Sequence record: NC_028925.1
Strand: one strand, 5' to 3'
DNA: 64,000 nt
From: Escherichia phage vB_EcoM_VR25
Part shown: in pieces, positions 23,819-61,639 of the stretch
Layout: every line of letters starts with the position of its first letter
Position numbering within the stretch: position 1 is the stretch's first letter
The notes under the pieces: model-generated
What the model was told of the DNA's origin: nothing
What the model saw: only the letters and a program-made list of their open reading frames with translations
Database searches by the model: none
Translations under genes and position numbers: made by a program

Positions 23819-23899
23819 TTTATTCTCCAGTGTTTTATTGTGTAACTCAGTATGGAATCATTATGCACTGGACCAACCCTGTTGTAAACCCCTTTATGG

Positions 23900-23917
23900 A
23901 AAATAAAAAAGGGACTC
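23900..23917 (-). terminator. hairpin terminator after small basic ORF
   Basis: gggactc ttcg gagtccc followed by TTTTTTATTTT on minus strand. Confidence 0.6.
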
Positions 23918-23922
23918 CGAAG

Positions 23923-24084
23923 AGTCCCTGAACTTATGCTTTCGGCTTACCAAAGCAAGCTGCATCGGCACGCAATACCGCACGAGCACGAGCCTGAAGT
24001 TTATCAGTTACCTGATTGATTCGCTTGTTGGACGCACGCTTGTAACCAGCGCGTTTGGAGGAGCCATCAACAACTTTAACTTCT
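23923..24084 (-). CDS. small highly basic protein, 53 aa (30.9 position)
   Basis: Hand-translated MAKKEVKVVDGSSKRAGYKRASNKRINQVTDKLQARARAVLRADAACFGKPKA; followed by hairpin terminator; below ORF-track cutoff. Confidence 0.4.
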
Positions 24085-24391
24085 TTCTTAGCCATATTAA
24101 ATTCTCTTTAAAATAGAATGCAGGACTTATTGACATTGCCTGCGCAAGCCCTCGAAGGGAACATTAGGTTTCGGATATTTAACGACAGGATAACCATAAA
24201 CCTCGTCATCATACCAACCACGGCTTAGACAGATAACCTTTTTCTGACGCGTGATAGTACAAAATACATTCAAGAGGTACACCGTAAAACTGCTGGGGTC
24301 TTAAAACTATAATGATTCGCAAATCATTAATCAGACAGTTCGACGGCTCCTCGATTTTCTAGCCGCACTAAGGTAGCGAATCACCTACAGC

Positions 24392-24646
24392 TTACTTCAG
24401 GGTTACGACAAAATGGCGAACAGCTTTGCGGGCAGCAGATGCCAGCGGCTTAGCAAATTTCAGTTCATCTTTTGCTTCGAGTACAGCGCGAAGGTCGGTT
24501 TGTACCGGGTTAAGATGTTTGAAATACTGCAGGATTTCCAGTGCTTCGGCTTCAACATCAATAGATGCGCCGTAGTTTTCGTGACCGTTATTCCATGCAG
24601 TGCGTTGCAGTTCAAGAGCGTGTTGTAATTGTTTGTTTAAAGACAT
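24392..24646 (-). CDS. rIII: rIII lysis-inhibition accessory protein
   Basis: Start at MSLNKQLQ inside ORF 24392..24781 (~84 aa); sits downstream of gene 31 as in T4. Confidence 0.7.
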   Translation of the reverse strand: MSLNKQLQHALELQRTAWNNGHENYGASIDVEAEALEILQYFKHLNPVQTDLRAVLEAKDELKFAKPLASAARKAVRHFVVTLK

Positions 24647-24803
24647 TTTAGAAGCCTCAATATGAGGTGAATATTTGGTGGACACGTTCTTCTGAATTTC
24701 ACTTCCTTTCGGCAAGTCTCTCAGTTGTAGTCCACCGTTTAGGATTCTCCGGGTAACTAACTGGTCCGGCAGCCAATCCATATTATTATTTATAACGCTA
24801 ATT

Positions 24804-25151
24804 TTACTTATAAAGACAAGGAACAGCTTTATAATGACAGGTCACAAATTTCTGCTTAACTTCTTTAGCCTGCTTAAGTCCCAGAGCAACCAGAGGATGT
24901 GGAACGTTTGCAATCTTGCCAACCGGAAGAGGAGTCAAATCACCTACTTCACAGAAGCCTTCAGGAACATCTGAACCAATCGAAAATACTTCACACATCT
25001 CGGGAATTTCACCCTGATGGAGTTTTCCGATAACGATACCTGATGCCGTAGTTTCTTCATCACCAGCTTGCTTTGGCTCAGAAACCAAAATAATATATTC
25101 ACCTACTGCTTTAATTGGTAATTCCATATTTAATCCATGTTGTTTGGTCAT
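24804..25151 (-). CDS. 31: co-chaperonin gp31 (GroES analogue for capsid protein folding)
   Basis: 115 aa; near-identical to remembered T4 gp31 ([22 protein letters not shown]…[14 protein letters not shown]). Confidence 0.9.
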
Positions 25152-25182
25152 GTATTAATAATAACACGCGTTGTTTGAAGCA

Positions 25183-25482
25183 TTAAAGGACGAGCAGAGT
25201 CTCGGTCTGTAATCCATTCACAGAAATCAATTTATTGAAACAGAATGAACGCCACTCATTAAGCTTGGTATCAAATACCCTGATATAGCTAACCGGTTCT
25301 TTACTAGTTTCTGGTCCAGGGGCCTGGATTTCTTTATACGGCAGCAGGTCCAGGTCGCGAGTACAAGTCATACGACGGGTGCTGCCATCTGCTTTTTCAA
25401 ACAGAACTTCGTGAAAACCAACAGACAAGATAGTCTTGACTTTTTCACGGAGGTGAATTGTTTCTTGTTCAGTTAAAATCAT
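25183..25482 (-). CDS. hypothetical protein (31.1 position)
   Basis: 99 aa ORF. Confidence 0.5.
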   Translation of the reverse strand: MILTEQETIHLREKVKTILSVGFHEVLFEKADGSTRRMTCTRDLDLLPYKEIQAPGPETSKEPVSYIRVFDTKLNEWRSFCFNKLISVNGLQTETLLVL

Positions 25483-25484
25483 AA

Positions 25485-25718
25485 TTATTCCAAAACAGTT
25501 TTAATGGTGGTTGTACCGCGCGATTTTAAAGCGCTCAACAGGTTTTTACATTTTTCAAAAACTGGGTCCGTTTTATACTTAATGCTTTCATCAATCCATT
25601 CGGATTTATAGTAAGACTTCCAGCGAGAGAAAAAGTTCTTTTTGTATTCTACTGAAAAAGCAATTATACCAGTTCCTCTTGAACTAAGCCCGGATATTTT
25701 AACCATACGAAATTTCAT
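25485..25718 (-). CDS. hypothetical protein (31.2 position)
   Basis: 77 aa ORF. Confidence 0.45.
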   Translation of the reverse strand: MKFRMVKISGLSSRGTGIIAFSVEYKKNFFSRWKSYYKSEWIDESIKYKTDPVFEKCKNLLSALKSRGTTTIKTVLE

Positions 25719-26299
25719 TATTCACCACAAAATTCGTTAATGTTTTCCCAGTTCAATTTGTCTAGACTACGCTTAGGCACATTGAACACCTCAATTCCTG
25801 CATTCTTCAGGATATCATCCCAACCAGGAATATTCTTGTCATACGTTTCACAGTAAACCAATTTCTTGATTCCTGATTGAGAAATTGCCTTTGCACAATC
25901 AGGGCAAGGAGAAAGCGTCACGTACATAGTAGCGCCTTCAATTGACGACCCCATCCTTGCTGCAAACAAAATCGCATTAAGTTCTGCGTGGATTTCGTTG
26001 TTCTTTGACCATGCAGAATGTTCTTCACGATGAGCTTTCGCCAATACAAAACGGTCAACCTTACTGAATCTCACACATTCTGGCTTGTGGCCAGGGACGA
26101 GAACAGGTTTAGGTTTATTCAGTAACCAACCTTGCTCCTCTGCATGCTCGCAACAGTTAACCCCACCTGCAGGGGAACCATTATACCCTGTAGAAATAAT
26201 GCGACCATTCTTTTCAATAACAGCTCCCACTTTCCAGGAGCAGCATTTTGATTCTTGAGATACAAGGTACGCGATTTGCAGAACAGTAGTTGGTTTCAT
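25718..26299 (-). CDS. cd: dCMP deaminase
   Basis: 193 aa; zinc-deaminase motifs CEHAE and SPCPDCAKAI; same length as T4 Cd. Confidence 0.9.
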   Translation of the reverse strand: MKPTTVLQIAYLVSQESKCCSWKVGAVIEKNGRIISTGYNGSPAGGVNCCEHAEEQGWLLNKPKPVLVPGHKPECVRFSKVDRFVLAKAHREEHSAWSKNNEIHAELNAILFAARMGSSIEGATMYVTLSPCPDCAKAISQSGIKKLVYCETYDKNIPGWDDILKNAGIEVFNVPKRSLDKLNWENINEFCGE

Positions 26300-26638
26300 T
26301 TACATCACCATGATATAGGCAGATTTATCAGTTTCAACACGATATAATTCATGTCGCAATTTCGTGATTGATTTAACACGTGAGGTTAATATACCATAAC
26401 CATCTTTAAAGCGTTTTTTCTTATCAAAGAATACCACGCCTGATAATGAATTACCGATTTCAACTGGTAACATAGTCAACAACACGCCATCATAATCAGC
26501 TGGGCTAATGCTTTTAAACAAAGTATCATTCATCAACAAAGCCCGGATAAATTGTATAGCACCATCAGAGAGACCTCGATGGTCTCCATCCTTGTCTTCC
26601 TGTAATGCAGTGGTAATAGCTTCTACTAAACTAATCAT
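26300..26638 (-). CDS. hypothetical protein (cd.1 position)
   Basis: 112 aa ORF. Confidence 0.5.
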   Translation of the reverse strand: MISLVEAITTALQEDKDGDHRGLSDGAIQFIRALLMNDTLFKSISPADYDGVLLTMLPVEIGNSLSGVVFFDKKKRFKDGYGILTSRVKSITKLRHELYRVETDKSAYIMVM

Positions 26639-26868
26639 TGAATGTACACTCGCTGCGCTTCAACCAGACCATCAGAACCCAATTTCAATTGAGTAAACTG
26701 GTCACCATCTTTTGGATTAATGACAATCATAAAACTACGTGCAGATTCCTGAATAACTTTCAGAGTCGCATCAGGAAATCGCTGTGATACATGGTTAATC
26801 ATCGCTTGAGCAAATGCCTTCACTTTTTCGTGGAACTCTTCAACAGTAATTGGGGTTTCGCTAAGCAT
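26635..26868 (-). CDS. hypothetical protein
   Basis: 77 aa ORF. Confidence 0.45.
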   Translation of the reverse strand: MLSETPITVEEFHEKVKAFAQAMINHVSQRFPDATLKVIQESARSFMIVINPKDGDQFTQLKLGSDGLVEAQRVYIQ

Positions 26869-27410
26869 CAGATTGTCTCCTGTTTTACTTGTTTAACGAT
26901 AGAAGCTTTTGTTATATCACCTTTGATAATATAACAATCTTCTGCAGTACCACGGCTTAACAGACGCTCTGCTTCGCCTTCCGCATATTCTTTTGACACA
27001 TGACGAGAGTTAATCTCAATCTTGCCATTTTTAACTACAAGCAATTTCCAAACTGATGCAAGTTTTACTGGCACAGGTTCAACTTCTGGCTTAACACCAA
27101 CTTCCGCCTGGATGAAATAATCAAATTCATCAGACAATGGACCAGCAGAAACAAACAGCGCACCATGATGCCTGTTCTGTGTGCCAGATATTTTTGGCAA
27201 ATCCACAAAATCATTTTCATCAATCAAACGGATTTCACAAACTTTTTTACCACCGCTGATGGCATCAGGTACAATTTTCACTTCAAACGGAGTCATACCG
27301 ATGTATCCAGCAATTTGGTAATTAGCTGCCCAGCCTCCGGCAATAAATTGTTTTTTAGCATTTTCAGACGTGAACTTGTAAAACTTACCTTCTTCAAAGA
27401 AATCACTCAT
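26868..27410 (-). CDS. hypothetical protein; N-terminal GKFY...AKKQFIAG motif shared with ORF 40269..40634
   Basis: 180 aa ORF; paralogous N-terminus noted by eye. Confidence 0.5.
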   Translation of the reverse strand: MSDFFEEGKFYKFTSENAKKQFIAGGWAANYQIAGYIGMTPFEVKIVPDAISGGKKVCEIRLIDENDFVDLPKISGTQNRHHGALFVSAGPLSDEFDYFIQAEVGVKPEVEPVPVKLASVWKLLVVKNGKIEINSRHVSKEYAEGEAERLLSRGTAEDCYIIKGDITKASIVKQVKQETI

Positions 27411-27476
27411 TTTGTTTTCCTCATGTGTTGATGAAATTCATTATACACCATCCATGGTGAAAGTAAACACTTTAAA

Positions 27477-27755
27477 TTAAATTGCTTCGACAACTACTGT
27501 TTGTTTCTGGAAGTCCATTTTGCATGAAATAGTCAAAATGTGGTTATCAATTTTAAATGGAACAATTGCAAATGCTGCACCAGGGTGGAGCTGGACAGTG
27601 ATTGCATCAACTGCATCCGGGAACATGATTTCCAGAATAGCAGACAAACGACCATGCACTTTTAGTTCAGTCGACACGTCGACGATTTCGTATAGATAAT
27701 CAGATACAATCTGACTAAAAACTAATTTAACAATTTCAGAATATGTAGGAAACAT
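27477..27755 (-). CDS. hypothetical protein
   Basis: 92 aa ORF. Confidence 0.45.
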   Translation of the reverse strand: MFPTYSEIVKLVFSQIVSDYLYEIVDVSTELKVHGRLSAILEIMFPDAVDAITVQLHPGAAFAIVPFKIDNHILTISCKMDFQKQTVVVEAI

Positions 27756-27826
27756 TTCTTTTCTCGCTTAGTTATTGGGATTATCCAAAGGACCTAGACC
27801 CATTATAACATAAAATTTTTAAAGCG

Positions 27827-30136: not shown

Positions 30137-30669
30137 ACACCAAGCTCCTTATAAAGTTCTTCGCGACAAGTTTTCAGAATTTTACCAGTTTCATAAGCTG
30201 TGCTTTCAGAAACATCACCAAGTGCAGCGGCAGCTTGCATTTGGCCATGGCGTTTAGCAGCATATTCAAAACTTTTTACTAGCTCACGAATACGTTCTTT
30301 TTCATTGTATTCTTCAATAAATTCTGGATATTCCCAAACAGGTCGCATCATACGATACCACAGTTGGATGGTAATATAATTACTTCCATCCAGATTAATA
30401 ATTTGTGAAGGCTTAATAGCGCCAGGAGCATAAAAAGTTACCTGTCTTACTACATCAATACCATCCACAATAGCCCAAGCAAAATCGAAGGTGGCCTTCT
30501 TTTCAATTGGCGTGCTCGCACAAGACCCTAACTTTAAGAGCTTTTGTAATACAGGAGATTTAACTCCTGAAATGTACACAGGATTAGCTACAAAGCTGTT
30601 ATCACGTAATGACATAATAGTTTCCTCAAATATTTTATAATCCGTGGGAGCATTATACTCTGCTCCCAA
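30133..30669 (-). CDS. hypothetical protein
   Basis: 178 aa ORF; start may be internal (MSLRDN). Confidence 0.5.
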
Positions 30670-32162: not shown

Positions 32163-32232
32163 GTTTTGGTCCTCATCAGTAGTTGATGGAACCATTATGT
32201 ATAGAAAGAAGGGGCTTGTACACCCCTTTTTA

Positions 32233-39657: not shown

Positions 39658-39716
39658 TTTATTCTCCTCAAGTTGATAAGGCTATAGTATCACTACCATA
39701 GCCCTGTTGTAAACAT

Positions 39717-39962
39717 TTATTTTTGAATTAAGCCCATATAAAATTCAGCATCTTCAACATGCATACCATCGCAATACTCGTCAGTCATAAAACGAGTAAG
39801 GTCTTCAAGAGGACCTTGGACTTCAATTTGGATACTGAAGAATTGAGTATCTTTGATGTAAGTCATACTCAAAGAAGGATAACGATTACGGATAACTTCA
39901 TAAGTGTATTCAAAATCAACGATATCAATATTAACTTTAGCCATTTTATTTTCCTCACTCAT
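39717..39962 (-). CDS. hypothetical protein
   Basis: 81 aa ORF preceded by promoter cassette. Confidence 0.5.
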
Positions 39963-40012
39963 TAGTTGATAGGTCTATAGTATCTCAACCATAGACATTG
40001 TACACTACTTTT

Positions 40013-40634: not shown

Positions 40635-40699
40635 TTTAATTTCCTCATATTCAATTGAGGGAACATACTATCATGTTCCCATTTGTTTGTATACTACTA

Positions 40700-40957
40700 T
40701 TATACTTCGCTAAAGAATTTAAATTCGCTATCCAGAATTTCAAAACAGTTCACACCAAAATCATCACTTGATGCGATTACACCGTTAGGAAATTCAACGC
40801 AATCAACAATCAGCGTATCCATAAACTTGTTAATGCTCAGGACTTTAAAGGAACCGCCATTCTTGTTAATCAGATTAACCATATCACAATTCTTTGCATC
40901 TTCGCGCTTGTATTCGTTAATCAGATTGTTCAGAGTGTAAGTTTTAAAAGTTTGCAT
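40700..40957 (-). CDS. hypothetical protein (paralog of 40269..40634)
   Basis: 85 aa; GGSFKVL…NGVI aligns with GSSFKVL…DGTI. Confidence 0.5.
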   Translation of the reverse strand: MQTFKTYTLNNLINEYKREDAKNCDMVNLINKNGGSFKVLSINKFMDTLIVDCVEFPNGVIASSDDFGVNCFEILDSEFKFFSEV

Positions 40958-41044
40958 TTCATATCCTTTAGTGTATCAGCAGTTGATGGAATCATTATGC
41001 CTTAGCTCAAAGGACTTGTACACTACTTTTTGAAAATAAAAAAG

Positions 41045-41060
41045 GGACCCGAAGGTCCCC
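41045..41060 (-). terminator. hairpin terminator after gene 32
   Basis: gggacc ttcg ggtccc followed by TTTTTTATTTT on minus strand. Confidence 0.7.
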
Positions 41061-41977: not shown

Positions 41978-42036
41978 AGTGATTTCCTTTGATTATTTGA
42001 TTTTAACAGTTGTTTTGATTACGTATTAATTATACT

Positions 42037-42705
42037 TCAGAGTGATTGAAGCGTTATTTGACAGTTTTTAACCGTCTCAATGAAAAGCTTACGAGCTTCA
42101 AGAGCATCTATATTTAAGATTTTCTTATAAGCATTTAGTTTGGTTGAATACTTGTCCCAAACCAAATCGTTAGTCTGTTCATCATGTTTATTTATTATAT
42201 GCAAAAATGAGTCAAGCAAACAAAACGTTTCAAATGAGATAACATTCGATTGGAGAAGTTTGAAAATATAACTCGTGTTCACTTTAGTATTATACTCGAA
42301 AATCTCTTGAAGCGATTTGACTTCAACTTTCTTACTAAAGTAATAGATGTTCTTTATATCATCTTCGTATACTTGTTTAATTCTTTTAAGTCTGCCGATG
42401 TATTCCCTATAAAATATCAGAGCATCGGCATCACTTATATCACCTATCCATGCATCCTGGTTCGCGACCAGGTTTGACATGAATATTAACGTTAATTCTT
42501 TGAGAGTATACTTATCGCTAAGCTTTTCGAAAAAATACTTATCGCGGCGTTTTTGATAAGCACTATCGGAGATTCGCATGGTCCAGTTATATTTGATAAT
42601 ATCATAACGACCCGAAAAATGCTGTTTGATGGATAAGTACAGTTGATATACTGATTTACCATTTATGTATCGGTTGTTATTTGGAGGCATGCGAATCGTA
42701 ATCAT
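42037..42705 (-). CDS. 59: gp59 helicase-loading protein
   Basis: 222 aa; size and position between 32 and 33. Confidence 0.8.
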   Translation of the reverse strand: MITIRMPPNNNRYINGKSVYQLYLSIKQHFSGRYDIIKYNWTMRISDSAYQKRRDKYFFEKLSDKYTLKELTLIFMSNLVANQDAWIGDISDADALIFYREYIGRLKRIKQVYEDDIKNIYYFSKKVEVKSLQEIFEYNTKVNTSYIFKLLQSNVISFETFCLLDSFLHIINKHDEQTNDLVWDKYSTKLNAYKKILNIDALEARKLFIETVKNCQITLQSL

Positions 42706-44293: not shown

Positions 44294-47200
44294 ATGGCCG
44301 ATATTTTAAAACCAGCATTCAGAGCAACATCCGGTCTCGATGCTGCTGGTGAGAAAGTCATTAATGTCGCGAAAGCTGATTACTCAGTTTTGTCAGACGG
44401 CGTGAACGTAGACTTCTTTATAGAAGAAAACACAATTCAACAATATGATGCAACACGCGGATATAAGAAAGATTTTGCAGTTATCTATGATAACCGTATT
44501 TGGGTTTCCCAACGCGAAATCGCAGAACCAGCTGGCTCATTTGTTCAGCAATATTGGACTGCAACCCGTACTGACCCGAAATGGGAAACTGTTGCATCAC
44601 CGACTCGTCAGCTTAATTCCGGGGAATTTATCGCGGTCGACTCAGCTGCAAGCTTTACCACATTTACATTGCCTCCGAACCCGACTGATGGTGATACCAT
44701 CGTTATTAAAGATATCGGCGGCAATACCGGTTATAATGAAATCAAAGTTCAATCGAGCAATGTGCCTGGTCAAGGTAACCAAAAAATTGTTCGTTTTGGT
44801 AATCAGTATTCAGAAGTTTTAATTACCAAACCGTTCTCTTATAACATGCTTATTTTCTCCAACCGTTTATGGCAGTTCTGGGAAGCAGGTAACGAAGAAC
44901 GTGGAATAAGAATTGAACCAAGCTCTGGTAAATATCGTGCTCAGGCTGCAGACTTTATTATGCGCCGTTACACGACTGCAGAAAAAATTACATTTGTTCT
45001 TCCTAAGTATGCTAACCAAGGTGATATTGTCAAATCAGTAGACATAGATGGATTAGGGCCATTATATCACCTGGATGTTGAAACGTTTGACGAGTCAAGC
45101 TCTCTGGGTAAACAGGGTCAGCACAGTATGGAATTCCGTACAACTGGTGATGGCTTCTTCGTTTATAATGCCACTGAAAAACTGTGGGTGACTTGGGATG
45201 GTGATAACAAAACTCGCCTGCGTGTAATCCGTGACAGTGTGAAATTGCTGCCAAACGAAAGCATTATCGTATTTGGTAATGATAACAGCACTCCACAGAC
45301 AATTAACATCGACCTTCCAACGGGTGTTCGTTCTGGGGACGTAGTTAAGATTGCTCTGAACTATCTTCGCAAGGCACAGACTGTTAATATTAAGGCCACC
45401 GCGCTTGATAAAATCGCGTCTTCTGTTCAGCTGCTTCAGTTCCCGAAACGTTCGGAATATCCACCTGACACTGAATGGGTATTGGTTGACTCTTTGACTT
45501 TCAACGGTAACATAAGTTATACTCCGGTTATCGAATTAAGTTATCTTGAAGATACAGTTAGGAACATTAACTATTGGGTTGTTGCGCAAAACGTTCCGAC
45601 TGTCGAGCGTGTTGACTCTAAAGACGATTTGACCCGTGCTCGTCTGGGTGTTATTGCACTGGCTAACCAGGCACAAGCAAACGTTGACCATGAAAATAAC
45701 CCTGAAAAAGAATTAGCAATTACCCCGCAAACTTTAGCTAACCGTGTGGCTACTGAATCACGCCGCGGTATTGCACGAATCGCTAACACAGCACAGGTTA
45801 ACCAGGATACGACTTTTGCTTTCCAGGATGATATTATCGTTTCTCCGAAAAAGTTAAACGAACGTACAGCTACAGAAACAAGACGTGGACTCGCAGAAAT
45901 CGCCACACAGCAAGAAACTGATGCAGGTATAGATGATACCACAATCATCACTCCACGCAAGCTACAAGCTCGTCAGGGCTCTGAAAGCTTATCTGGTATT
46001 GTCAAGTATGTGCCGACTGTTGGAACTACTCCAGCCGCAAGTCGTATTACCGTTGGGACCAACATTTATAATAAGAACACAACTACTTTAGTTATTTCTC
46101 CTAAAGCTTTAGACCAATATAAAGCTGACCAGAATAACCAAGGTGCTGTATATCTAGCAACTCAGTCAGAAGTTAACGCAGGGGCAACAAATACAGGATT
46201 CAGTAACTCGGCCGTGACTCCTGAAACATTAGGTGCCCGCAGAGCAACAGATTCAAACCACGGTTTAATCGAGATTGCAACTCAGGTTGAAACTAATGCC
46301 GGTACTGATTATACCAGAGCTGTTACTCCTAAAACGTTGAATGACCGTAAAGCAACAGAATCATTATCCGGCATAGCCGAGATTGCTACGCAATCAGAAT
46401 TTGATACTGGCACTGATGATACTCGTATTGCAACGCCATTAAAAATTAAAACTAGACTTAATAATACTGCTCGTACTTCTGTTATTGCTGCAAGTGGTTT
46501 AGTAGAAACAGGGACGCTCTGGGACCATTATACGCTGAATATTCTTGAAGCAAATGAGACTCAACGTGGCACCGCAAGACTGGCTACTCAGCTTGAAGTT
46601 AATACTGGTACTGACGATAAAACAATCGTTACTCCGCTTAAGTTGATGTCGAAAAAAGCTACAGAAGGCACCGAAGGTATTGTTCGCATCGCAACTCGTG
46701 CCGAAACCATCGCAGGAACAAGTTCTGTTCTGGCTGTTTCTCCTGTTAGTCTGAAATGGATTGCACAGTCCGAACCAACATGGGCGGCAACCACGACGAC
46801 CCGCGGCTTTGTTAAGATGTCTGAAGGCGCAATTACTTTTGTCGGTAATGCAACCGCAGGTTCTACTCAGGCCCTTGACCTGTACGAGAAAAATAGCTAT
46901 GCTATCTCTCCGTATGAGTTAAACAAAACCCTTGGTAACTTCCTGCCACGTCTGGCTAAAGCAGCGGACTCGGATAAACTGGACAACCTGGATAGCACGC
47001 AGTTTATTCGTCGTGATATCGACCAAATCGTTGAAGGTACATTAACCCTTAGAAAGAACATAAGAGTTGATGGTCAACTGGCAACCGGCGGTACTGGTGA
47101 ATTTGGTGGCTCATTAGCTGCTAACTCAACATTTACTATCCGTAACACAGGTGCTTCAACTCGTTTGATATTTGAAAAAGGACCACAAACTGGAAATAAC

Positions 47201-48193
47201 CCGTTTCAAACCATGAATATCCGAGTATGGGGTAACCAATTCGCTGGTGGTTCTGATACAAGTCGTTCTACGATATTTGAAGTTGGCGATGAAACATCCA
47301 ACCACTTTTATTCGCAACGTAATAAAGACGGTAATATAGCGTTTAGCATTAATGGTACTGTAATGTCAATAAATGTTAATGCTTCCGGTTTGTTGAATGT
47401 GAATGGCGTTGCAACATTCGGTCGTTCAGTTACTGCTAACGGTGAATTCATTAGCAAGTCTGCAAATGCTTTTAGAGCAATTAATGGTGATTACGGATTC
47501 TTTATTCGCAATGATGCTGCTACCACCTATTTTATGTTAACTAATTCAGGTGACCAGACTGGTGGATTTAATGGATTACGGCCTTTAGCTATTAATAATG
47601 CCTCCGGTTTAGTAACTATTGGCGAAAGTTTGATTATTGCTAAAGGTGCAACGATTAATGCTGGCGGTTTAACAGTTAACTCGAGAATTCGTTCACAAGG
47701 TACTAAACCCGCTGACCTTTATTCGAGAAAACCTAATGCAGATAATACAGGCTTCTGGTCTGTTGAAGTTAATGACTCTGCTACATATAATCAGTTCCCG
47801 GGTTATTTCAAAATGGTTGAAAAGACCAACGAAGTAACTGGTCTGCCTTATTTGGAGCGTGGTGAAGAAGTTAAATCACCGGGTACATTAACTCAGTTTG
47901 GTAACACACTGAATTCACTCTATCAAGACTGGATTACTTATCCGAATACGACCACAGCAAGCACCACTCGCTGGACTCGTACATGGCAGCAGAACAAAAA
48001 CGCATGGTCTGGTTTTGTTCAGGTATTTGATGGCGGTAACCCACCACAGCCTTCAGATATCGGTGCATTGCCTGCTGATAACGCTTCGATGAGCAACCTG
48101 ACTATCAGAGATTGGTTAAGAATCGGTAACGTACGTATTGTTCCGGACCCAGTAACTAAATCCGTTAAATTCGAATGGATTGATACACCATAA
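44294..48193 (+). CDS. 34: long tail fibre proximal subunit gp34
   Basis: 1299 aa; TATAAATA late promoter 30 nt upstream; repetitive beta-rich sequence; synteny. Confidence 0.9.
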   Translation: MADILKPAFRATSGLDAAGEKVINVAKADYSVLSDGVNVDFFIEENTIQQYDATRGYKKDFAVIYDNRIWVSQREIAEPAGSFVQQYWTATRTDPKWETVASPTRQLNSGEFIAVDSAASFTTFTLPPNPTDGDTIVIKDIGGNTGYNEIKVQSSNVPGQGNQKIVRFGNQYSEVLITKPFSYNMLIFSNRLWQFWEAGNEERGIRIEPSSGKYRAQAADFIMRRYTTAEKITFVLPKYANQGDIVKSVDIDGLGPLYHLDVETFDESSSLGKQGQHSMEFRTTGDGFFVYNATEKLWVTWDGDNKTRLRVIRDSVKLLPNESIIVFGNDNSTPQTINIDLPTGVRSGDVVKIALNYLRKAQTVNIKATALDKIASSVQLLQFPKRSEYPPDTEWVLVDSLTFNGNISYTPVIELSYLEDTVRNINYWVVAQNVPTVERVDSKDDLTRARLGVIALANQAQANVDHENNPEKELAITPQTLANRVATESRRGIARIANTAQVNQDTTFAFQDDIIVSPKKLNERTATETRRGLAEIATQQETDAGIDDTTIITPRKLQARQGSESLSGIVKYVPTVGTTPAASRITVGTNIYNKNTTTLVISPKALDQYKADQNNQGAVYLATQSEVNAGATNTGFSNSAVTPETLGARRATDSNHGLIEIATQVETNAGTDYTRAVTPKTLNDRKATESLSGIAEIATQSEFDTGTDDTRIATPLKIKTRLNNTARTSVIAASGLVETGTLWDHYTLNILEANETQRGTARLATQLEVNTGTDDKTIVTPLKLMSKKATEGTEGIVRIATRAETIAGTSSVLAVSPVSLKWIAQSEPTWAATTTTRGFVKMSEGAITFVGNATAGSTQALDLYEKNSYAISPYELNKTLGNFLPRLAKAADSDKLDNLDSTQFIRRDIDQIVEGTLTLRKNIRVDGQLATGGTGEFGGSLAANSTFTIRNTGASTRLIFEKGPQTGNNPFQTMNIRVWGNQFAGGSDTSRSTIFEVGDETSNHFYSQRNKDGNIAFSINGTVMSINVNASGLLNVNGVATFGRSVTANGEFISKSANAFRAINGDYGFFIRNDAATTYFMLTNSGDQTGGFNGLRPLAINNASGLVTIGESLIIAKGATINAGGLTVNSRIRSQGTKPADLYSRKPNADNTGFWSVEVNDSATYNQFPGYFKMVEKTNEVTGLPYLERGEEVKSPGTLTQFGNTLNSLYQDWITYPNTTTASTTRWTRTWQQNKNAWSGFVQVFDGGNPPQPSDIGALPADNASMSNLTIRDWLRIGNVRIVPDPVTKSVKFEWIDTP

Positions 48194-50062: not shown

Positions 50063-53000
50063 ATGGCTACTTTAAAAGCGATACAATTTAAAAGAAGTAA
50101 GACAGCTGGTGCCAAGCCTACTGTAGACCAGTTGGTTGAAGGTGAACTGGCTATTAACTTACGCGACCGCACGATTTATACCAAAACCGACCAGAACCAG
50201 ATTATCGACCTTGGATTTGCTAAAGGTGGTCAGGTTGATGGTGATATTCTCCAGAACGGCACATTTAACCTCAATGGTAATATGTTCGTTTACGCTGGTA
50301 AGTATATTGAATTCCTGCCTAAAACTGCCGGTAATGGCGCATGGTCCAACCAGCACTTGAATAAAGCTCCTATCTTTGCAGATTTAAGTTCAACTACCTC
50401 AGTATCAGAATACCATCCTCTGATTAAGCAACGTTATAAAGACGGTACTTTTTCTGCCGGTACATTAGTAAATGAAGGTAGTTTTAAATTCCATTATATT
50501 GATGAAACTGGTCAATCTAAATATTGGACATTTGCGCGCTCAGGTAATTTTCAAGTTGATTCTGGTAATTTATTAGTATCTGGTGGGTATTTAGTCGCTC
50601 AGAATAATATTGAAACAAGAACAGGTTCTTTGATTGGTCCATCTGTTGTAACTAAAAATATTTCATTTGATACAAAAGCGTTCGGACAATACGATTCGCA
50701 GTCATTAGTTCAATATGTTTATCCTGGAACAGGTGAAGAAAATGGTATAAACTATCTTCGTAAAGTTCGAGCTAAATCAGGTGGAACCATTTACCATGAA
50801 ATCGCTTCAGCTCAAACTGGTAAGAATGATGAAATTTCTTGGTGGAATGGAAATACACCTACTACTAAATTAATGGGTCTTCGTAATGATGGCGCCATGG
50901 TATTACGTCGTTCACTTGCTATTGGCACAATTACTGCTGACGAAAATACTAACAACTACGGCTCTCCTACTCCATTGGGAGAAAGATATATTGCTTTGGG
51001 CGATGCTGCCACTGGTTTAAAATACATTAAGCAGGGCGTTTATGATTTAGTAGGTAATTGGAATTCTGTCGCATCTATTACACCTGACAGTTTCCGCAGT
51101 ACTCGCAAAGGTTTATTTGGACGTTCAGAAGACCAAGGCACTACATGGATTATGCCTGGAATCAACGCCGCTCTTTTATCAGTCCAAACTCAGGCTGATG
51201 TGAATAACGCAGGTGATGGTCAGACGCATATTGGCTATAACTCTGGTGGAAAAATGTCACATTATTTCCGCGGTAAAGGTCAAACGAATATTAACACTCA
51301 AGAAGGCATGGAACTTAATCCAGGTATTCTTAAACTGGTAACCGGTGCAAATAATGTACAATTTTATGCTGACGGCACTATTTCTTCTATCCAACCTGTT
51401 AAATTAGACAACGAATTATTTTTAAATAGTTCTAATAATACTGCAGGCCTTAAACTTGGTGCCCCTAGCAAAGTTGATGGCTCGAGAACTATCCAGTGGA
51501 ACGCCGGGACCCGTGCAGGACAAAATAAAAGTTATCTGACTATGAAAGCTTGGGGTAATGCATTCGACTCCACTGCCGGCGAACGCGAAACTGTATTTGA
51601 ATTGTATGACGGCCAGGGCTATCATTTTTATTCTCAACGTTTAGCTCCGACGGGTTCTGAAACTGTCGGTACTCTTCAATTCAGAATTTCTGGCGCTTTA
51701 CGTGTAGGTGGCGGTATTATATCGGCAGGTTCTATTGTTACTGAATCAAGTTTAGTTGCAAATAATGGATTATCTGTAAACGGACAAGCTAAATTCGGTG
51801 GAACAGCAGATGCATTAAGAATTTGGAATGCTGAATACGGTGCTATTTTCCGTCGTTCAGAAGCAGCATTGCATATTATTCCAACTCCTAAAGACGCTGG
51901 TGAAAGCGGTGGAATAAGTAATCTCCGTCCATTAAGTATCAGCCTTAATAATGGTATGGTGCAAATGCGACATTCTGTTACGTTAGGCGATGATGGAGCT
52001 GGCGGTAATATGATTACTGTGGACAATGACGGTAAACTTGTTGTTGTTACGAGTCATAGTCGCATTTCTCCTAATTATAATATGCAATTAGGACAAAATG
52101 CTTATATAGATATTGAGGCTACTGAAGGTGCACGCCCGGCGGGTTGGGGTTCATTTGCATCTCAGAACGATGCAAATGTCAGGGCTCCGATTTATATGAA
52201 TATAGACCGTGCCGCTACTTCTGAATATCTCCCTATTATCAAACAACGTTACGTACAGGGCGATAGTACTTATTCTATGGGCACCTTAATTTCTCGAGGA
52301 GACTTCCGCATCCATTATCACCAAGGTAATAGTACTACCGGCACTGATTTAAGCTGGGAATTCCGCCGCGACGGTGATTTCCGCGCTTCGGGTAAAATTA
52401 TTGCCGGTTCTGTTACTCTTGACCATGATGGTAACATCACAGGTGGTTCTGGTAATTTTGCTAACTTGAACAGTACAATTGAATCACTTAAAACCGATAT
52501 TGTATCAAGCTATCCAATTGGTGCTCCTATTCCATGGCCAACAGATACTCCTCCTGCGGGTTATGCTTTAATGACGGGTCAGCCCTTTGACAAGAGCACA
52601 TATCCCAAGCTTGCCGTTGCTTATCCATCAGGTACTATTCCGGATATGCGTGGACAAACTATTAAGGGTAAACCGAGTGGTCGTGCCGTGCTGAGTGCGG
52701 AAGCTGATGGTATTAAGTCTCATAATCATAGTGCTTCTGCATCTAATACTGATTTGGGTACTAAAACCACATCAAGCTTTGATTATGGTACTAAAACCAC
52801 ATCAAGCTTTGATTATGGTACTAAGACCAGTAATACCACTGGTAACCATAACCATACAGTAAGTGGAACTACTGCCGCTGCAGGTAACCACCAACACGCG
52901 CGTTCAGGTCCTCAGGTACAAGGCGGCATACCCACTAGCGTATTCTATGACGGATACAATACTGTAGGTCCAAACGGCAACGCTAAATTCACTGCAACCG

Positions 53001-53266
53001 TGAGCGGTGCTACTGCATCGTCGAATATGGCCAAAACATCAACAGAAGGTAACCATACTCATACTTGGTCAGGTACTACTAGCGCTACGGGTAACCATGC
53101 TCATACTGTAGGTATCGGTGCTCACACTCACACTGTAGGTATCGGTGCCCACTCGCATTCAGTAGCGATTGGTTCGCACGGACATACTATCACTGTAAAT
53201 AGTACAGGTAATACAGAAAACACGGTTAAAAACATTGCTTTTAACTATATCGTTCGTTTAGCATAA
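50063..53266 (+). CDS. 37: long tail fibre distal subunit gp37 (receptor-binding tip with His-x-His repeats)
   Basis: 1067 aa; C-terminal GNHNHT/GNHTHT/GAHTHT/GSHGHT motifs and ending ...[11 protein letters not shown] as remembered for T4 gp37. Confidence 0.9.
52757..52828 (+). repeat. perfect 30-bp in-frame tandem duplication inside gene 37 ([10 protein letters not shown] x2 plus partial third)
   Basis: ggtactaaaaccacatcaagctttgattat occurs twice consecutively, followed by ggtactaagacc. Confidence 0.85.
53105..53158 (+). repeat. 27-bp near-perfect tandem repeat in gene 37 His-x-His region ([19 protein letters not shown])
   Basis: actgtaggtatcggtgctcacactcac / actgtaggtatcggtgcccactcgcat. 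Confidence 0.8.
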
Positions 53267-56685: not shown

Positions 56686-56862
56686 TTAGCCCCTCACTTT
56701 CAAAGTTACAGATTGAATTTCAATTTCAACATCATCGCGATATTCACGGTCATCACCATGAATCTGACCAAGGCGAACACACGCATCATATTCATTTTTT
56801 GCAGGGATTTGGTAATCACGTTCTTTACCATCTTTTAAGTACTTAATCAGATAGATGTTCAT
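56686..56862 (-). CDS. small hypothetical protein, 58 aa (motA.1 position)
   Basis: Hand-translated MNIYLIKYLKDGKERDYQIPAKNEYDACVRLGQIHGDDREYRDDVEIEIQSVTLKVRG; below ORF-track cutoff. Confidence 0.35.
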   Translation of the reverse strand: MNIYLIKYLKDGKERDYQIPAKNEYDACVRLGQIHGDDREYRDDVEIEIQSVTLKVRG

Positions 56863-56872
56863 AATAATTTCC

Positions 56873-57483: not shown

Positions 57484-57711
57484 TTATCCCTTGATGGATT
57501 TCATGTAATTGGATGCATATGATTGTACCACAGTACGCTTCATATGGGAAGTAGAAACAATAACATCAATCGCTTGTTTACGTTCTTCTTTAGAATTCGC
57601 CAGTTTGAACATGTCAAAGTAGTAATAGCAAGCTTCTTTGTTAGATTTGAATTTAGCGTTGATGTATTCTTGACCTTCATTCTGTTGTGCAGTAAACATT
57701 TTATTCTCCAA
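57484..57711 (-). CDS. hypothetical protein
   Basis: 75 aa ORF. Confidence 0.45.
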   Translation of the reverse strand: MENKMFTAQQNEGQEYINAKFKSNKEACYYYFDMFKLANSKEERKQAIDVIVSTSHMKRTVVQSYASNYMKSIKG

Positions 57712-57808
57712 AGTTTTTGTGATTCAGTGTGTAACTCAGTATGGAATCATTATGCATCAGGTCAAGGGGTTTGTATACTACTTTTTTTAAAATATTTTAA
57801 AATAAAAA

Positions 57809-57826
57809 AGGACCCCGAAGGGTCCT
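57809..57826 (-). terminator. hairpin terminator downstream of gene 52 and small membrane ORF
   Basis: aggaccc cgaa gggtcct followed by TTTTTTATTTT on minus strand. Confidence 0.6.
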
Positions 57827-57922
57827 AGTCTTTATCTATCTTATTGCCAATAAACATACCAACAATCACACCCGCGATTGCCGCGAAAATACAAAGCAAT
57901 GCAAACTCCACTCCAAAACTCA
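57826..57922 (-). CDS. small membrane protein, ~32 aa, start overlapping gene 52 stop (ATGA)
   Basis: Hand-translated MSFGVEFALLCIFAAIAGVIVGMFIGNKIDKD; single TM helix; coordinates +/-1 nt. Confidence 0.35.
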
Positions 57923-59299
57923 TAGAGCCTCCAAGTCATTAAGGTATTCCGTTTTAACATCAGTTGCCTTCCAGTACTCATGCTCAGCTTTCTTAGCCTT
58001 TGCTTCGTCTGCAAGCTTCTTGGCTTCGTCAGAGGTCATATGGTAGATGTTCATCGCCACTAACTTCTCTGCATAATCGCCATATATTTCGCTTGCCTGG
58101 AGCTCCTCAATCAACTTCTTACGAGGTTTCCCCTGGATAACAACCTTGCCATCAATCACTTCTTTAATAAAGAAAACTTTCGCGCGGGCCAGTTTAAATG
58201 CTGCTTCAGTTTCTTTAATCTTACTGTCAATTCGCACTTGGACATAAGTCTTACGGACATCAACGAAATCGCGAATCAGGTCAAGCGTGTTGGTGTATTC
58301 AGCCAGTTTACCTTTGTGATTAAGCACTGTTAAGTTCTGGGAGAGCTTTTCAATCAGACCAAAGTCTTTCATGATTTTCTCATGATTCTCTTCTTCAGTG
58401 CCATCCAGCTTGTATTCTTTACGGAATTTAATCTTAAACCCAAAACCATGTTCGCCGCAGTTATCTTTCCAGGTGATAAAACCTTTCTCTTCCAGCGGGT
58501 CCAGGATTTTACTTGTATACTTTTCCAGGTTCCATTGGACTGGAATTTCAGTAATTTCCATTTGAGTCCTGGAAGTCATTTTGTACGTGCCATGAAGCTC
58601 ATACTTGCCAGGTTCTTCCAGCTCAACAACTTCACCACGGAATTCTGGATATTTTACTTTCGGAGCAACCGGCTCACGACCTTCCACGATAGCTTTAACA
58701 GCTTCCTTGACGTCCTGGAACGAATGAGGAAGAATATCAGTAGCGAAGCCAACAGCAATCCCAGAAGTGGCGTTAAGTAATACAGTAGGAATAACAGGAA
58801 GATAAAAAGCAGGAGGCTTATGTTCTTCATCAGGATGGACCGGAGCATATTCTGTATCCTTAAACAAGTTGTAAAAGTTCTTTGAAACCCTTGCGAATAC
58901 ATAACGAGCTGATGATGCTTCTGGAACCATTCTGGAACCAAAGTTGCCTTGCCCATCAAACATAGGATATTCATTTTTATATGTTGCGACCAAACCGGAT
59001 GTTGCTTCTTCTGCTGATGCTTCACCATGGTGATAACCATAATCAGCTACGCCACCTGCGATGGATGCAACCTTATGGAATTTATTCTTATCGCCACGAG
59101 CCAGGTCTAATGCTCTCGCCATAACAAATCTGTGAACTGGTTTAAAACCATCAATCATGTTTGGGATGGCGCGACCTTCCACAGTGTAGATAGCATATGA
59201 CAATGCTTCCACATCAATAATGTCTTTTAGACTACGTGGGTTAAGCGACCCCATGGAATCACTGAACTGTTTGGACATCATACTTAAAACGTCAGACAT
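57920..59299 (-). CDS. 52: DNA topoisomerase II medium subunit gp52 (GyrA-like breakage-reunion domain)
   Basis: 459 aa; N-terminal GyrA-like region (…AIPNMIDGFKPVHRFV…); synteny after motA. Confidence 0.85.
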   Translation of the reverse strand: MSDVLSMMSKQFSDSMGSLNPRSLKDIIDVEALSYAIYTVEGRAIPNMIDGFKPVHRFVMARALDLARGDKNKFHKVASIAGGVADYGYHHGEASAEEATSGLVATYKNEYPMFDGQGNFGSRMVPEASSARYVFARVSKNFYNLFKDTEYAPVHPDEEHKPPAFYLPVIPTVLLNATSGIAVGFATDILPHSFQDVKEAVKAIVEGREPVAPKVKYPEFRGEVVELEEPGKYELHGTYKMTSRTQMEITEIPVQWNLEKYTSKILDPLEEKGFITWKDNCGEHGFGFKIKFRKEYKLDGTEEENHEKIMKDFGLIEKLSQNLTVLNHKGKLAEYTNTLDLIRDFVDVRKTYVQVRIDSKIKETEAAFKLARAKVFFIKEVIDGKVVIQGKPRKKLIEELQASEIYGDYAEKLVAMNIYHMTSDEAKKLADEAKAKKAEHEYWKATDVKTEYLNDLEAL

Positions 59300-59307
59300 A
59301 TATCACC

Positions 59308-59448
59308 TTACCAGATTAACGAATGTACTGCCATTATAGCATCAGAAATAAAAAGCACAACCTGCACTAATGCAAACATAACTCCATAATACAGCGCTAC
59401 CAATAAGGTAGCAAGGGCTAACGAGTAGCCCAAGATTTTCTTAATCAT
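59308..59448 (-). CDS. small membrane protein, 46 aa
   Basis: Hand-translated [46 protein letters not shown]; below ORF-track cutoff. Confidence 0.35.
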   Translation of the reverse strand: MIKKILGYSLALATLLVALYYGVMFALVQVVLFISDAIMAVHSLIW

Positions 59449-59629
59449 TGCTCACCGCGGAAACCATAAATTTAACAAAGGCATCAACTACAAACCATCC
59501 ACACAAGAAATAAACAAACCACATAGGCGGGATGAAGACACCTGCGACAAAAAGAGTTACTAAAACAATGACCGCCACTAGATAAATGAATGAAAAGACT
59601 GATGTCATATTTTCCTCAAGGGCGTCCAA
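59441..59629 (-). CDS. small membrane protein
   Basis: 62 aa with two hydrophobic helices. Confidence 0.45.
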
Positions 59630-59697
59630 AGACGCCAGTTAATTTCAGATTATGACGATGCCATTGCATCACATGTTCGTTATGGAAATTACTCATA

Positions 59698-60147
59698 TTA
59701 ATAGCTCTGCAGAATAAATTTAAAGTTATCAGCAAGCATGCGATTCATTTCTGAAAGGGTCTGGCAATCAGAACTATGCGAGCGAGTGAACGCCATCGCA
59801 ATTTGACCTTTACCATAACCAGTTGTCAGAGGTTTCATTTTAGAAACCGGGACAAACAGGACTTCATAGATAACCCCATTGTTCGCCATTGTGCGAGACA
59901 GTTGTGAACGCTGTTTGCGGATGTGACTTAATACAGTGTCAAACCCTTGTTGTGAACGTTGGTTACCAACATAAAAACGTGCAGCAACAATACGTGATTC
60001 GCCTTCACCTTTGACCACGAAATAAAAACCTGGTTGGGTAATAGCTTCTTTAGTTGGACGACCCGCAACATAATTACCATTATGGATGTAAGCAATAGTG
60101 GTAGCGCCGGCATTCAGTACGTCACGACGAGTCATGTAAGTAGTCAT
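59698..60147 (-). CDS. ndd: Ndd nucleoid-disruption protein
   Basis: 149 aa; matches remembered T4 Ndd (…NAGAT…KPGFYF…[19 protein letters not shown]…MKPLTTG.GKGQ.A.AFTR…[14 protein letters not shown]). Confidence 0.85.
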
Positions 60148-60185
60148 ATTAATTTCCTCAGTAAGTTAAAGTTTTGTGCTCCAGT

Positions 60186-60221
60186 GGGGTCATTATACTC
60201 TGACCCCAAGAGTTTGTACAC
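60186..60221 (-). promoter_or_regulatory. early promoter cassette with stem-loop enclosing the -10 box (PeSL-like), paralog of 30646..30681
   Basis: Minus strand GTGTAC-N18-TATAAT; inverted repeat ggggtc/gacccc flanks the -10. Confidence 0.5.
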
Positions 60222-60565
60222 TATTTTTGAAGCTGTTCTAAAATAAATCCGCTGGTGTAAAGGCTTGCATTATACAGGCGGTCAAGAGACAATGAATCCA
60301 ATCCATAAGCTTCACGAATTGCATTGATAGCACTTTCGTAACTTGTATAATAAACATCGCGATAATCACGGTCCATAGTCATGCGGAACTTAATAAATTT
60401 ATAGAAACCAGTTTCAGGGTCCTGATAGAATGCAAATTCTGCAGACATCAAATTTTTAAGGTGAACAACTTTTGTGCCACCTGAATAACTTAAATCAAAG
60501 GCTTCTGATACGCTAATTTGTTTAAAGAACATAATGTTGCGATTGCCAAAAAAGACTTTAGACAT
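60221..60565 (-). CDS. hypothetical protein
   Basis: 114 aa ORF preceded by promoter/stem-loop cassette. Confidence 0.5.
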   Translation of the reverse strand: MSKVFFGNRNIMFFKQISVSEAFDLSYSGGTKVVHLKNLMSAEFAFYQDPETGFYKFIKFRMTMDRDYRDVYYTSYESAINAIREAYGLDSLSLDRLYNASLYTSGFILEQLQK

Positions 60566-60581
60566 AATGATTTCCTCAATT

Positions 60582-60827
60582 TTATTCAGGGTCTACCGCG
60601 CTATCCCACAAGTCAACTTCTTCTGATGATTCCATCAGTTCATCGACCGTAAAACATTCAGTATTATTTTCAATTGCAAAGCGCTTGCGATACCAGGGGT
60701 AATCCAAACAGTTTTCAGTGCGCACAGGGCGTTCACTGTTATCCATCAAAGGTGAAATGCGAATCAGTTGTTGACCATTACCCAGGACAAATTTTTCACC
60801 AACTACAATGTCTTTAAAAAGTTTCAT
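60582..60827 (-). CDS. hypothetical protein
   Basis: 81 aa ORF. Confidence 0.45.
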   Translation of the reverse strand: MKLFKDIVVGEKFVLGNGQQLIRISPLMDNSERPVRTENCLDYPWYRKRFAIENNTECFTVDELMESSEEVDLWDSAVDPE

Positions 60828-61078
60828 TGCTTAGCTCCATTCCAAATTACGTCAACAACAGACTTCAGACCATTATCCTGGATTTGCGTGAACACTTCAG
60901 CAGCAATCCAGACCTGGAAACCAATCATTACAATGGCACCAATGAAAATCAGGATAATCATCGCCACAATAAACTTGAACATAAAGTCAAAGCGACGATT
61001 GGATTTTTTAAATTGTGATTGGTAATTCATAATATTATCCTCAAAAGAAATAGTTAAAGTAAACATGCACATGGTCAA
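60824..61078 (-). CDS. hypothetical membrane protein
   Basis: 84 aa; TM helix FIVAMIILIFIGAIVMIGF. Confidence 0.45.
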   Translation of the reverse strand: MTMCMFTLTISFEDNIMNYQSQFKKSNRRFDFMFKFIVAMIILIFIGAIVMIGFQVWIAAEVFTQIQDNGLKSVVDVIWNGAKQ

Positions 61079-61296
61079 TCATAAAAACAATTGGGAAAAT
61101 GCTCAGGACAACAAACAGTACAAACATGTTCCAAATGGCTTTAAGTAACTTTTTCATAATCATCTCCAGTAGTTGATAGGTTCATTATACTACAACCACC
61201 GGAGATGTACACTCTTTTATGCTGTTATTAATAAACTAAAACACACACAAATCATTGGAATGGATAATACCCAGATAAGACACCAATTTTTGCTGC

Positions 61297-61563
61297 TCAA
61301 AATATCACCTCTTTGATTTCAATCAATCCCCTGTACAATGCAGTGCGGAGGTCATAAAGAATATCTATGCCATCAACATTATCCAGCTTGCCATCAATAA
61401 GCTTTTCCAAATCTTCCTTTGATGCAACCAATGGGCGAAGAAATTTACAATCAGAAAGAGATAACTCTGTAGTAACATCATCACCATCACCTGACGCATC
61501 ATACATAGCGGCAACAACCGTACCTGTAACTTTGTGTTTGGCGTAGTATAATTTAATATCCAT
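61297..61563 (-). CDS. hypothetical protein
   Basis: 88 aa ORF preceded by promoter cassette. Confidence 0.5.
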   Translation of the reverse strand: MDIKLYYAKHKVTGTVVAAMYDASGDGDDVTTELSLSDCKFLRPLVASKEDLEKLIDGKLDNVDGIDILYDLRTALYRGLIEIKEVIF

Positions 61564-61639
61564 TTTATTTTCCAGTTGTTTAGTAACTCAGTACGGAATC
61601 ATTATACATAGACTCCATACTGATGTACACTATTTTTAA

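Follow-up and report, generated by a model that had tools for sequence, protein, structure and literature searches.

A 26-bp repeated element as the probable core of early promoter cassettes in Escherichia phage vB_EcoM_VR25

A stretch of 64,000 nucleotides from the genome of Escherichia phage vB_EcoM_VR25 (NC_028925.1), called the window in what follows, carries three copies of a 26-bp element ahead of small early genes. This element is very probably the conserved core of T4-type early promoters, read by the host sigma-70 polymerase and set in a composite cassette of the promoter-early stem-loop (PeSL) kind, in which the first 12 transcribed bases (+1 to +12) are under selection; promoter activity and the position of the start are predicted from the sequence. 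The phage belongs to Gaprivervirus (T4-like, Straboviridae/Tevenvirinae) and is 97.8% identical to vB_EcoM_VR7 over the 6 kb tested. VR7 was scanned for early promoters (loci L001, L002 and L004, with L003 reached through sequence tools), and its annotation was used to name the gene contexts of the three sites. No paper on VR7 or Gaprivervirus promoters was found in the literature searched, and cassettes of the PeSL kind appear not to be described there for this genus.

The 26-bp element and its three sites

The 26-mer GTAACTCAGTATGGAATCATTATGCA occurs exactly at 23842-23867 and 57731-57756 and with 2 mismatches at 61583-61608, always on the minus strand of the window, which is the early-gene strand. 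None of 100 dinucleotide-preserving shuffles of the window contained a match, the expected number being 0. On the minus strand the sequence of every copy runs TG[C/T]ATAATGATTCC[A/G]TACTGAGTTAC, that is TG[C/T]ATAAT-GATTCC-[A/G]TACTGAGTTAC: a TG and -10 hexamer, a 6-nt discriminator GATTCC and the putative +1 to +12 (RTACTGAGTTAC). The element spans -14 to +12 if the start lies 7 nt past the hexamer, at the purine after CC; this spacing would place the putative +1 positions at 23853, 57742 and 61594. All three sites share further features of T4-type early promoters, with TTTACA, TATACA or TGTACA 17 nt upstream of the element, CATAAT or TATAAT as the -10 hexamer, and a ribosome binding site (RBS) and ATG within 21-33 nt downstream. 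A promoter scan of the three sites did not find the canonical extended -10 TGn at -15 to -13, and this candidate was rejected, the TG at -14/-13 abutting the hexamer and being one base too near to it.

An initial annotation of this DNA had described a three-copy element, with coordinates 1 to 6 bases off those given here, in which a -10 box is followed by a common transcribed leader 5' of an RBS. The element is present, and the arrangement holds at all three sites. The genes downstream had been called unrelated and do belong to three separate PHROG families, all of unknown function.

Each site, on the minus strand throughout, has an A-tract, a -35 of the form G-T-[G/T/A]-TACA and a 17-nt spacer unique to that copy; additional features of sites 1 and 2 are a terminator hairpin with a T-run upstream and the GGAGAATAAAATG RBS. 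At site 1 the hairpin returned by a terminator scan, AGGGACTC-ttcg-GAGTCCCT followed by TTTTTATTTT, lies at 23910-23929 and the -35 TTTACA (ggGTTTACAa) at 23883-23888. The 26-mer then supplies the TG (23867-23866), the -10 CATAAT (23865-23860), the discriminator GATTCC (23859-23854) and, from the putative +1 A at 23853, the initial transcribed sequence ATACTGAGTTAC (23853-23842). The RBS module GGAGAATAAAA with its ATG (23816-23828) precedes a gene at 23450-23818 for a gp30.8 homologue of 122 aa (phrog_1507).

At site 2 the terminator hairpin AGGACCC-ttcg-GGGTCCT followed by TTTTTATTTT lies at 57809-57826 and the -35 at 57772-57777; this is TATACA in the window and TGTACA in VR7, SP18, RZ and DK-13. 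Within the 26-mer the -10 CATAAT occupies 57754-57749, the discriminator 57748-57743 and the initial transcribed sequence 57742-57731, with the putative +1 A at 57742. The RBS module is again GGAGAATAAAA with ATG (57697-57709), and the gene, just upstream of motA, encodes a VR7ORF277c homologue of 71 aa (phrog_17275; 57484-57699). A second promoter-like match overlaps this one (57738-57765), with TTGACC in the spacer, 16 nt and then CATACT at -1 to +5. The TTGACC is invariant in the five orthologues and is also seen in the VR7 paralogue at 65618; the match may represent either a second start in tandem, some 12 nt further downstream, or a pause element that depends on sigma.

Site 3 has its -35 TGTACA at 61624-61629. 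The variant 26-mer provides the -10 TATAAT (61606-61601), the discriminator (61600-61595) and the initial transcribed sequence (61594-61583), in which the only change within the downstream block in the window is seen, A to G at the putative +1 (61594; A in four relatives). The RBS of this copy is GGAAAATAAAATG, the fourth G, and with it GGAG, having been lost. The gene, in the ndd-denB variable region, encodes a VR7ORF287c homologue of 88 aa (phrog_2390; 61297-61563).

Conservation of the initial transcribed sequence

The scan of VR7 gave 39 curated early-promoter candidates. Their logo is A-rich at -44 to -39 (0.49-0.72), with GTGTACAA at -36 to -29, G at -13 (0.67), the -10 hexamer, G at -6, T at -4, CCC at -3 to -1 (C 0.62-0.77), A at +1 and T at +2. 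The UP-like A tract, position -13 and positions -3 to -1 agree with published descriptions, in which T4-type early promoters are “uber” UP/-35/TGn/-10 promoters with additional consensus regions (Hinton 2010) and C is preferred at -3 to -1 in RB69, RB49 and 44RR (Nolan 2006). Past +2 the VR7 promoters fall into 10 with ATACTGAGTTA[C/T] (family A), about 15 with ATCAACTAC or a 1-2-nt variant of it (family B) and about 14 with other sequences. The copies of families A and B are all on the early strand, and all but one begin exactly 6 nt past the -10 hexamer; the VR7 scan found neither leader away from a promoter. Some family-B copies have a poor -10 (TAAGAT, TAATAT) and an intact leader. This enumeration beyond the window, and the alignment of about 40 promoters that it allowed, bear on the suspicion raised in the initial annotation that the element might prove to be simply an optimal promoter with nothing conserved beyond -10/+1 once more copies were aligned: the conservation past +1 persists.

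The initial transcribed sequence is the best-conserved block of these promoters. Among the 8 VR7 family-A paralogues that align without gaps, mean pairwise identity is 1.00 at +1 to +12, compared with 0.93 in the -35, 0.92 in the discriminator, 0.86 in the extended -10, 0.48 at +13 to +30 and 0.43 in both the UP region and the spacer. Similarly, among the orthologues of sites 2 and 3 in the window, VR7, SP18, RZ and DK-13, positions +2 to +12 are invariant, and the changes fall in the spacer, in the discriminator, at +13 and in the region before the RBS.

The same start sequences are found well outside these close relatives. A BLAST search with the cassette returned about 40 strongly matching Gaprivervirus-like records, each with 9-13 places. 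Morganella phage MP1 (Gualtarvirus) has five clustered promoters within 2.1 kb, which its record annotates as such by MEME, and all five carry TACTGAGTTA; their -10 hexamers (TATAAT, TATTAT, CATAAT) and their discriminators vary while the start sequence is invariant. In T4, motA and ndd.6 are each preceded by TACTAT-acaact-ATCAACTACTGATAC, and ndd.4 by ATCAACTATGGAGG. The T4 region examined yielded no family A ATACTGAGTTAC, which is multi-copy only in Gaprivervirus and Gualtarvirus-type phages. The idea that the families are novelties of the genus is ruled out for family A by the five MP1 copies and for family B by the T4 copies. A survey of IMG/VR that was not conditioned on the leader gave only 11 stretches, which came from VR20, VR26 and two short contigs and did not suffice for population statistics.

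T4 itself (NC_000866) has a long, nearly identical cassette in common at its early promoters at 146851, 163649 and 167062, ttttcacaaaac[a/g]gTTTACA, a spacer and gtggTACTATacaactATC. Two of these continue into ATCAACTACTGATAC, and that at 146851 departs after ATC (ATCGGCAATACTG). A repeated promoter-leader unit of the same kind is therefore present in T4.

Since the spacer and +13 to +30 have diverged while +1 to +12 are identical, and since the blocks extend to another genus and to T4, the copies are not recent. Furthermore, the strict locking to the -10, the lack of internal copies and the invariance across genera point to a role at transcription start. We infer that selection at the start of transcription, or immediately past it, keeps +1 to +12 identical, with recombination between copies probably adding some homogenisation.

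Readings of the conserved start

The most likely target of this selection is the initial transcribed sequence as a part of the promoter, through start-site choice, initial transcription or escape. Initial transcribed sequences shift promoter output by orders of magnitude and have been argued to be part of the promoter, and TG at +5/+6 has been tied to pausing in initial transcription and to slower escape (Heyduk and Heyduk 2018). The promoters described here would be very tightly bound, and escape from such a promoter would depend on the initial transcribed sequence; the 5' end and the unstructured leader of the mRNA may also contribute to the selection. A comparable case is that of strong phage promoters, T5 N25 and its relatives, whose initial transcribed sequence reportedly sets their output, as Kammerer in 1986 and Hsu in 2006 are said to have found. 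N25 starts with ATA, and its -10 is followed by (A)GATTC. The likeness lies in the combination of a very strong recognition region with a specific +1 to +10/+20 sequence as part of the functional promoter; the difference is that family A has a TG at +5/+6, reported to favour pausing over fast escape.

Several points weigh against the overall interpretation of the element as the core of an early promoter cassette with selection on its start. Family A has T5-G6, the very motif associated with pausing, so that “optimised for fast escape” is too simple a description. About a third of the VR7 early promoters (~14/39) have other C/A-rich leaders (ACTGGAG.., ACACCAAC.., ACGGATT..), and neither start sequence is therefore obligatory for an early promoter. 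In the 26-mer the TG stands one base nearer the hexamer than a canonical TGn would. Two other indels between the window and VR7 lie at RBS repeats or at a hairpin and not at promoter cassettes. Finally, selection and horizontal cassette exchange with gene conversion are not cleanly separable with the present data.

Could the identity simply reflect too little time since one cassette was duplicated or inserted, with no selection on the leader? Some copies do have long, nearly identical leaders, for example those at VR7 65618 and 162596 (ACACTGAATCA..TTTGGAGAA) and likewise site 2 of the window; copy number ranges from 9 to 13 among genomes, and T4-type phages are capable of short-homology recombination (Arbiol 2010). 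However, in the same copies the spacer (0.43) and +13 to +30 (0.48) are near saturation at an identity of 1.00 in +1 to +12, orthologues change on both sides of the block and not inside it, and the block is invariant in a different genus with other -10 and discriminator sequences. Recent duplication is accordingly disfavoured, and we regard it as very improbable. The initial annotation had proposed the recent spread of a regulatory cassette; the cassette is borne out by the match to PeSLs, by the mosaics and by the indels inside leaders described below, whereas its recency is contradicted by paralogue spacers and +13 to +30 that have diverged to 43-48% identity and by the occurrences in another genus and in T4. 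It also seems very doubtful that +1 to +12 is a DNA operator, bound by an early or middle phage protein that shuts off or regulates early promoters minutes after infection. The block lies across the start site, the expected place of action of a repressor, an inverted copy of it stands in the spacer of two MP1 promoters and of site 3, and the way in which T4 shuts off its early promoters is “not completely understood” (Uzan and Miller 2010) and needs no AsiA (Hinton 2010). On the other side, the 12-mer is not palindromic, one binder would not serve the unrelated families A and B and the other leaders, some of which would otherwise go uncontrolled, the inverted copies are more simply another version of the variable-sequence stem-loops that bracket the -10, and there is neither a candidate protein nor an experimental hint.

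Alternatively, +1 to +12 could act as RNA, a common 5' end being read by some factor of phage or host origin (whether a nuclease, an enzyme that modifies 5' ends, an RNA-binding protein or a small RNA) that sets the stability or the translation of these mRNAs together; this we consider quite unlikely. The block begins at the putative +1, is better conserved than the -10 and -35 in paralogues and across genera, and in every case stands at the very 5' end, with no internal occurrence, as would fit a reader specific for 5' ends. The leaders are unstructured and hence accessible, and the one base of the block that changes in the window is +1. Yet locking to 6 nt past the -10 is equally well explained by a role at the DNA level, a third of the early promoters are without both leader types, and neither structure, Rfam family nor complementary sequence was found for the block. 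Six folded leaders gave -0.6 to -3.6 kcal/mol, with z from -0.15 to +1.7, none being more stable than its shuffles and most being less so. A structured leader RNA is ruled out by these folds; the 4-bp AUCA/UGAU hairpin of some family-B leaders is lost in variants. Rfam gave no match at the gathering threshold over the whole window, in which no complementary copy was seen apart from the spacer repeats. The initial annotation's further suggestion of a nuclease site or small-RNA target gains no support from these results. Nor does a factor of this kind figure in the review of T4 post-transcriptional control, where the early-mRNA nuclease RegB needs GGAG, a sequence absent from the 26-mer (Uzan and Miller 2010).

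The initial annotation had also suggested RegB-type processing. A RegB site within the 26-mer is ruled out, there being no GGA(G) in it, and the idea survives as a prediction for the RBS module only, 14-23 nt downstream. The strong RegB/S1 consensus is GG*AGRAYARAA (Uzan and Miller 2010), and the window has 4 exact matches to it where 0.38 would be expected; each of them is part of an early RBS module on the early strand: the perfectly matching GGAGAATAAAA of site 1 (23818-23828), that of site 2 (57699-57709) and two other early cassettes. The likeness to T4 RegB/S1 sites thus lies in an RBS module that matches the 11-nt strong consensus, and the difference in its position outside the 26-mer and its loss at site 3, which has GGAAAA. 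VR7 encodes regB. Cleavage at GG/AGAATAAAA is predicted for the 30.8 and ORF277c messages, and GGAGAATAAAA would then be the point at which they are later inactivated.

A stronger form of selection on the promoter start can also be put forward, namely that the first 9-12 transcribed bases (ATACTGAGTTAC here and in MP1, ATCAACTAC here and in T4) are a distinct functional element, read as DNA or as nascent RNA, and serve as a programmed pause or escape signal or as a cis-site for switching off early promoters some minutes after infection. This proposal is speculative and on balance unlikely; if a function in initial transcription or early shut-off were true, the sequence would be a simple, mutable handle on an incompletely explained step of T4-type infection.

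Probable promoter cassettes of the PeSL kind

In a PeSL an AT-rich tract and a sigma-70-like promoter are combined with a stem-loop, whose position varies, and are followed by a Shine-Dalgarno sequence (SD) and ATG, the whole being conserved over about 100 bp (Arbiol 2010; Comeau 2014). They have been described in RB49/phi1 (Arbiol 2010) and in PST/T4 and nt-1/KVP40 (Comeau 2014). Recombination between PeSL copies has been shown, with crossovers mapped between the -10 and the SD or ATG, and T4-type phages recombine at short homologies (Arbiol 2010). The stem-loops, mosaics and copy number reported here match those of this class. The present cassettes share with PeSLs an intergenic composite of sigma-70-like -35/-10, movable stem-loop, SD and ATG; they too are conserved over about 100 bp and mosaic, stand in many copies before small early genes and ORFans, and may also share indel or replacement junctions between the -10 and the ATG. 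They differ in the -35, GTGTACA here against TTGACA in RB49 and TTTACW in PST/T4, and in that conservation is sharpest here at +1 to +12, a stretch to which the PeSL papers give no special place; promoter and terminator activity, and mini-circles formed when neighbouring copies recombine, are characters of the PeSLs of Arbiol (2010). With T4 early promoters they have in common a predicted sigma-70 recognition, the UP-like A-tract, a GTTTAC-type -35, G or TG before the -10, extra conserved positions and location on the early strand, as well as the family-B start ATCAACTACTGATAC, which T4 has at early promoters upstream of motA, ndd.6 and others. Here, by comparison with T4, -34 is mostly G and not T, and the TG is at -14/-13.

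The cassette, of ~110-130 bp, would be made up of a terminator or other stem-loop, a UP-like A-tract, the -35 G-T-[G/T/A]-TACA, a freely varying 17-nt spacer, TG and the -10 hexamer, the pyrimidine-rich discriminator GATTCC, a purine start, a short unstructured C/A-rich 5' untranslated region, a GGAG-type RBS and ATG. It would make each small early gene or gene pair a self-contained unit that fires at once on infection, and its conserved blocks would offer portable homology for the insertion, loss and swap of genes. The ~39 promoters of VR7 are intergenic, lie in variable early regions and stand before small genes and ORFans; runs of adjacent single-gene units are seen at 64731/65100/65618 in VR7 and at 61189/61606/61951 in the window.

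Strong stems above the cut-off were found in 8/16 promoters of the window, compared with 10% of shuffles. The stem-loop lies upstream at 23865, 40999 and 57754, around the -35 at 32199 and around the -10 at 23422, 30657, 39691, 39982, 40670, 60197 and 61606, the same three placements being given for PeSLs by Arbiol (2010), and its arms co-vary between copies (GGGGTC/GACCCC, GGGAGC/GCTCCC, GGCTAT/ATAGCC, GGGAAC/GTTCCC and TCAGTA/TACTGA). Inverted repeats whose arms are the late spacer and the discriminator, with the -10 in the loop, occur on the minus strand at 23395-23425, 30640-30665, 39680-39705, 40650-40680 and 60180-60205. The arms differ and nevertheless stay complementary, GGGAACAT/ATGTTCCC among them, and the stem at 23422 is of 11 bp; no T-run follows these repeats, which are therefore not classical terminators. 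In two MP1 promoters (L021, 9816-9846 and 11341-11382) the spacer holds the start sequence inverted, GGTAACTCAGTAT ... ATACTGAGTTACC. The counterpart at site 3 is a 6-bp repeat between spacer and start, TCAGTA directly after the -35 (61618-61623) against TACTGA at +2 to +7 (61588-61593).

Mosaicism is evident among the VR7 copies: those at 46951 and 162596 are 100% identical upstream and 44% downstream, and those at 65618 and 162596 are 53% identical upstream and 83% downstream. Over 129 nt, site 2 of the window can be aligned at 70% with the cassette of site 1 in VR7, from which it follows that the 26-mer is the core of a longer repeat. Three indels coincide with cassettes. The window has an insertion of ~290 bp relative to VR7 (40647-40937, minus strand), which brings in a small gene resembling frd.2 and one more promoter, TATACA..TAGTAT; upstream it breaks in a leader, right after ATCAACTGCTGATA, and downstream at the RBS. 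In RZ a 51-aa gene is inserted right after the ATG of the site-3 cassette and is flanked by two RBS modules, and in SP18 the gene for gp277 is preceded by an additional promoter cassette. Since two other indels between the window and VR7 lie away from promoters, the association of indels with cassettes, seen in the few examined, is suggestive and not established.

The initial annotation had noted a second family of leaders, and these were recovered on the minus strand as ATCAACT... starting at 32187, 40987, 61177, 39970 and 39677, each right after a -10-like hexamer. The family-B cassette at 32171-32222 has the hairpin AAGGGG-tgtacaag-CCCCTT with the -35 in its loop, followed by CATAAT, ggttcc and ATCAACTACTGATGAGG. 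That at 40977-41060 has an upstream terminator GGGACC-ttcg-GGTCCC, TGTACA, CATAAT, the family-A discriminator gattcc and ATCAACTGCTGATA. Two simpler family-B promoters are those at 61167-61211 (TGTACA, a 16-nt spacer, TATAAT, gaacct, ATCAACTACTGGAG) and 39960-40005 (TGTACA, TACTAT, agacct, ATCAACTAATGAGTGAGG). A family-B-like promoter at 39671-39715 (TTTACA, GATACT, atagcc, TTATCAACTTGAGGAGAATAAAATG) has a hairpin GGCTAT/ATAGCC around the -10 and an RBS that fits the RegB consensus. The promoter at 60180-60220, on the same strand, represents a third leader type, with TGTACA, a TATAAT inside the hairpin TGGGGTCA/TGACCCCA, and then ACTGGAGCAC.

Other differences from VR7 were seen in the window. 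A small gene at 56700-56864 that VR7 does not have is flanked on both sides by near-repeats of an RBS (AAAGTGAGG..ATTATG), so that the insertion is at RBS micro-homology and not at a promoter cassette. At 63010-63054 VR7ORF292c (492 bp, between denB.1 and rIIB in VR7) is missing, with a short GC hairpin GGGGGGCTTCGGCCCC in its place, and at 42036-42067, between genes 32 and 59, the SegG-like homing endonuclease gene gp32.1 of VR7 (~550 bp) is absent. The long tail fibre genes (34 and the 37/38 region; 47017-47726 and 50238-53054) are the most diverged from VR7, being unaligned or at 85%, as expected for host-range determinants.

The 26-bp element and its cassette are thus of a well-understood kind, found in a genus for which the literature searched has not so far described them. 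Its use in annotation is as a marker of early transcription units in Gaprivervirus.

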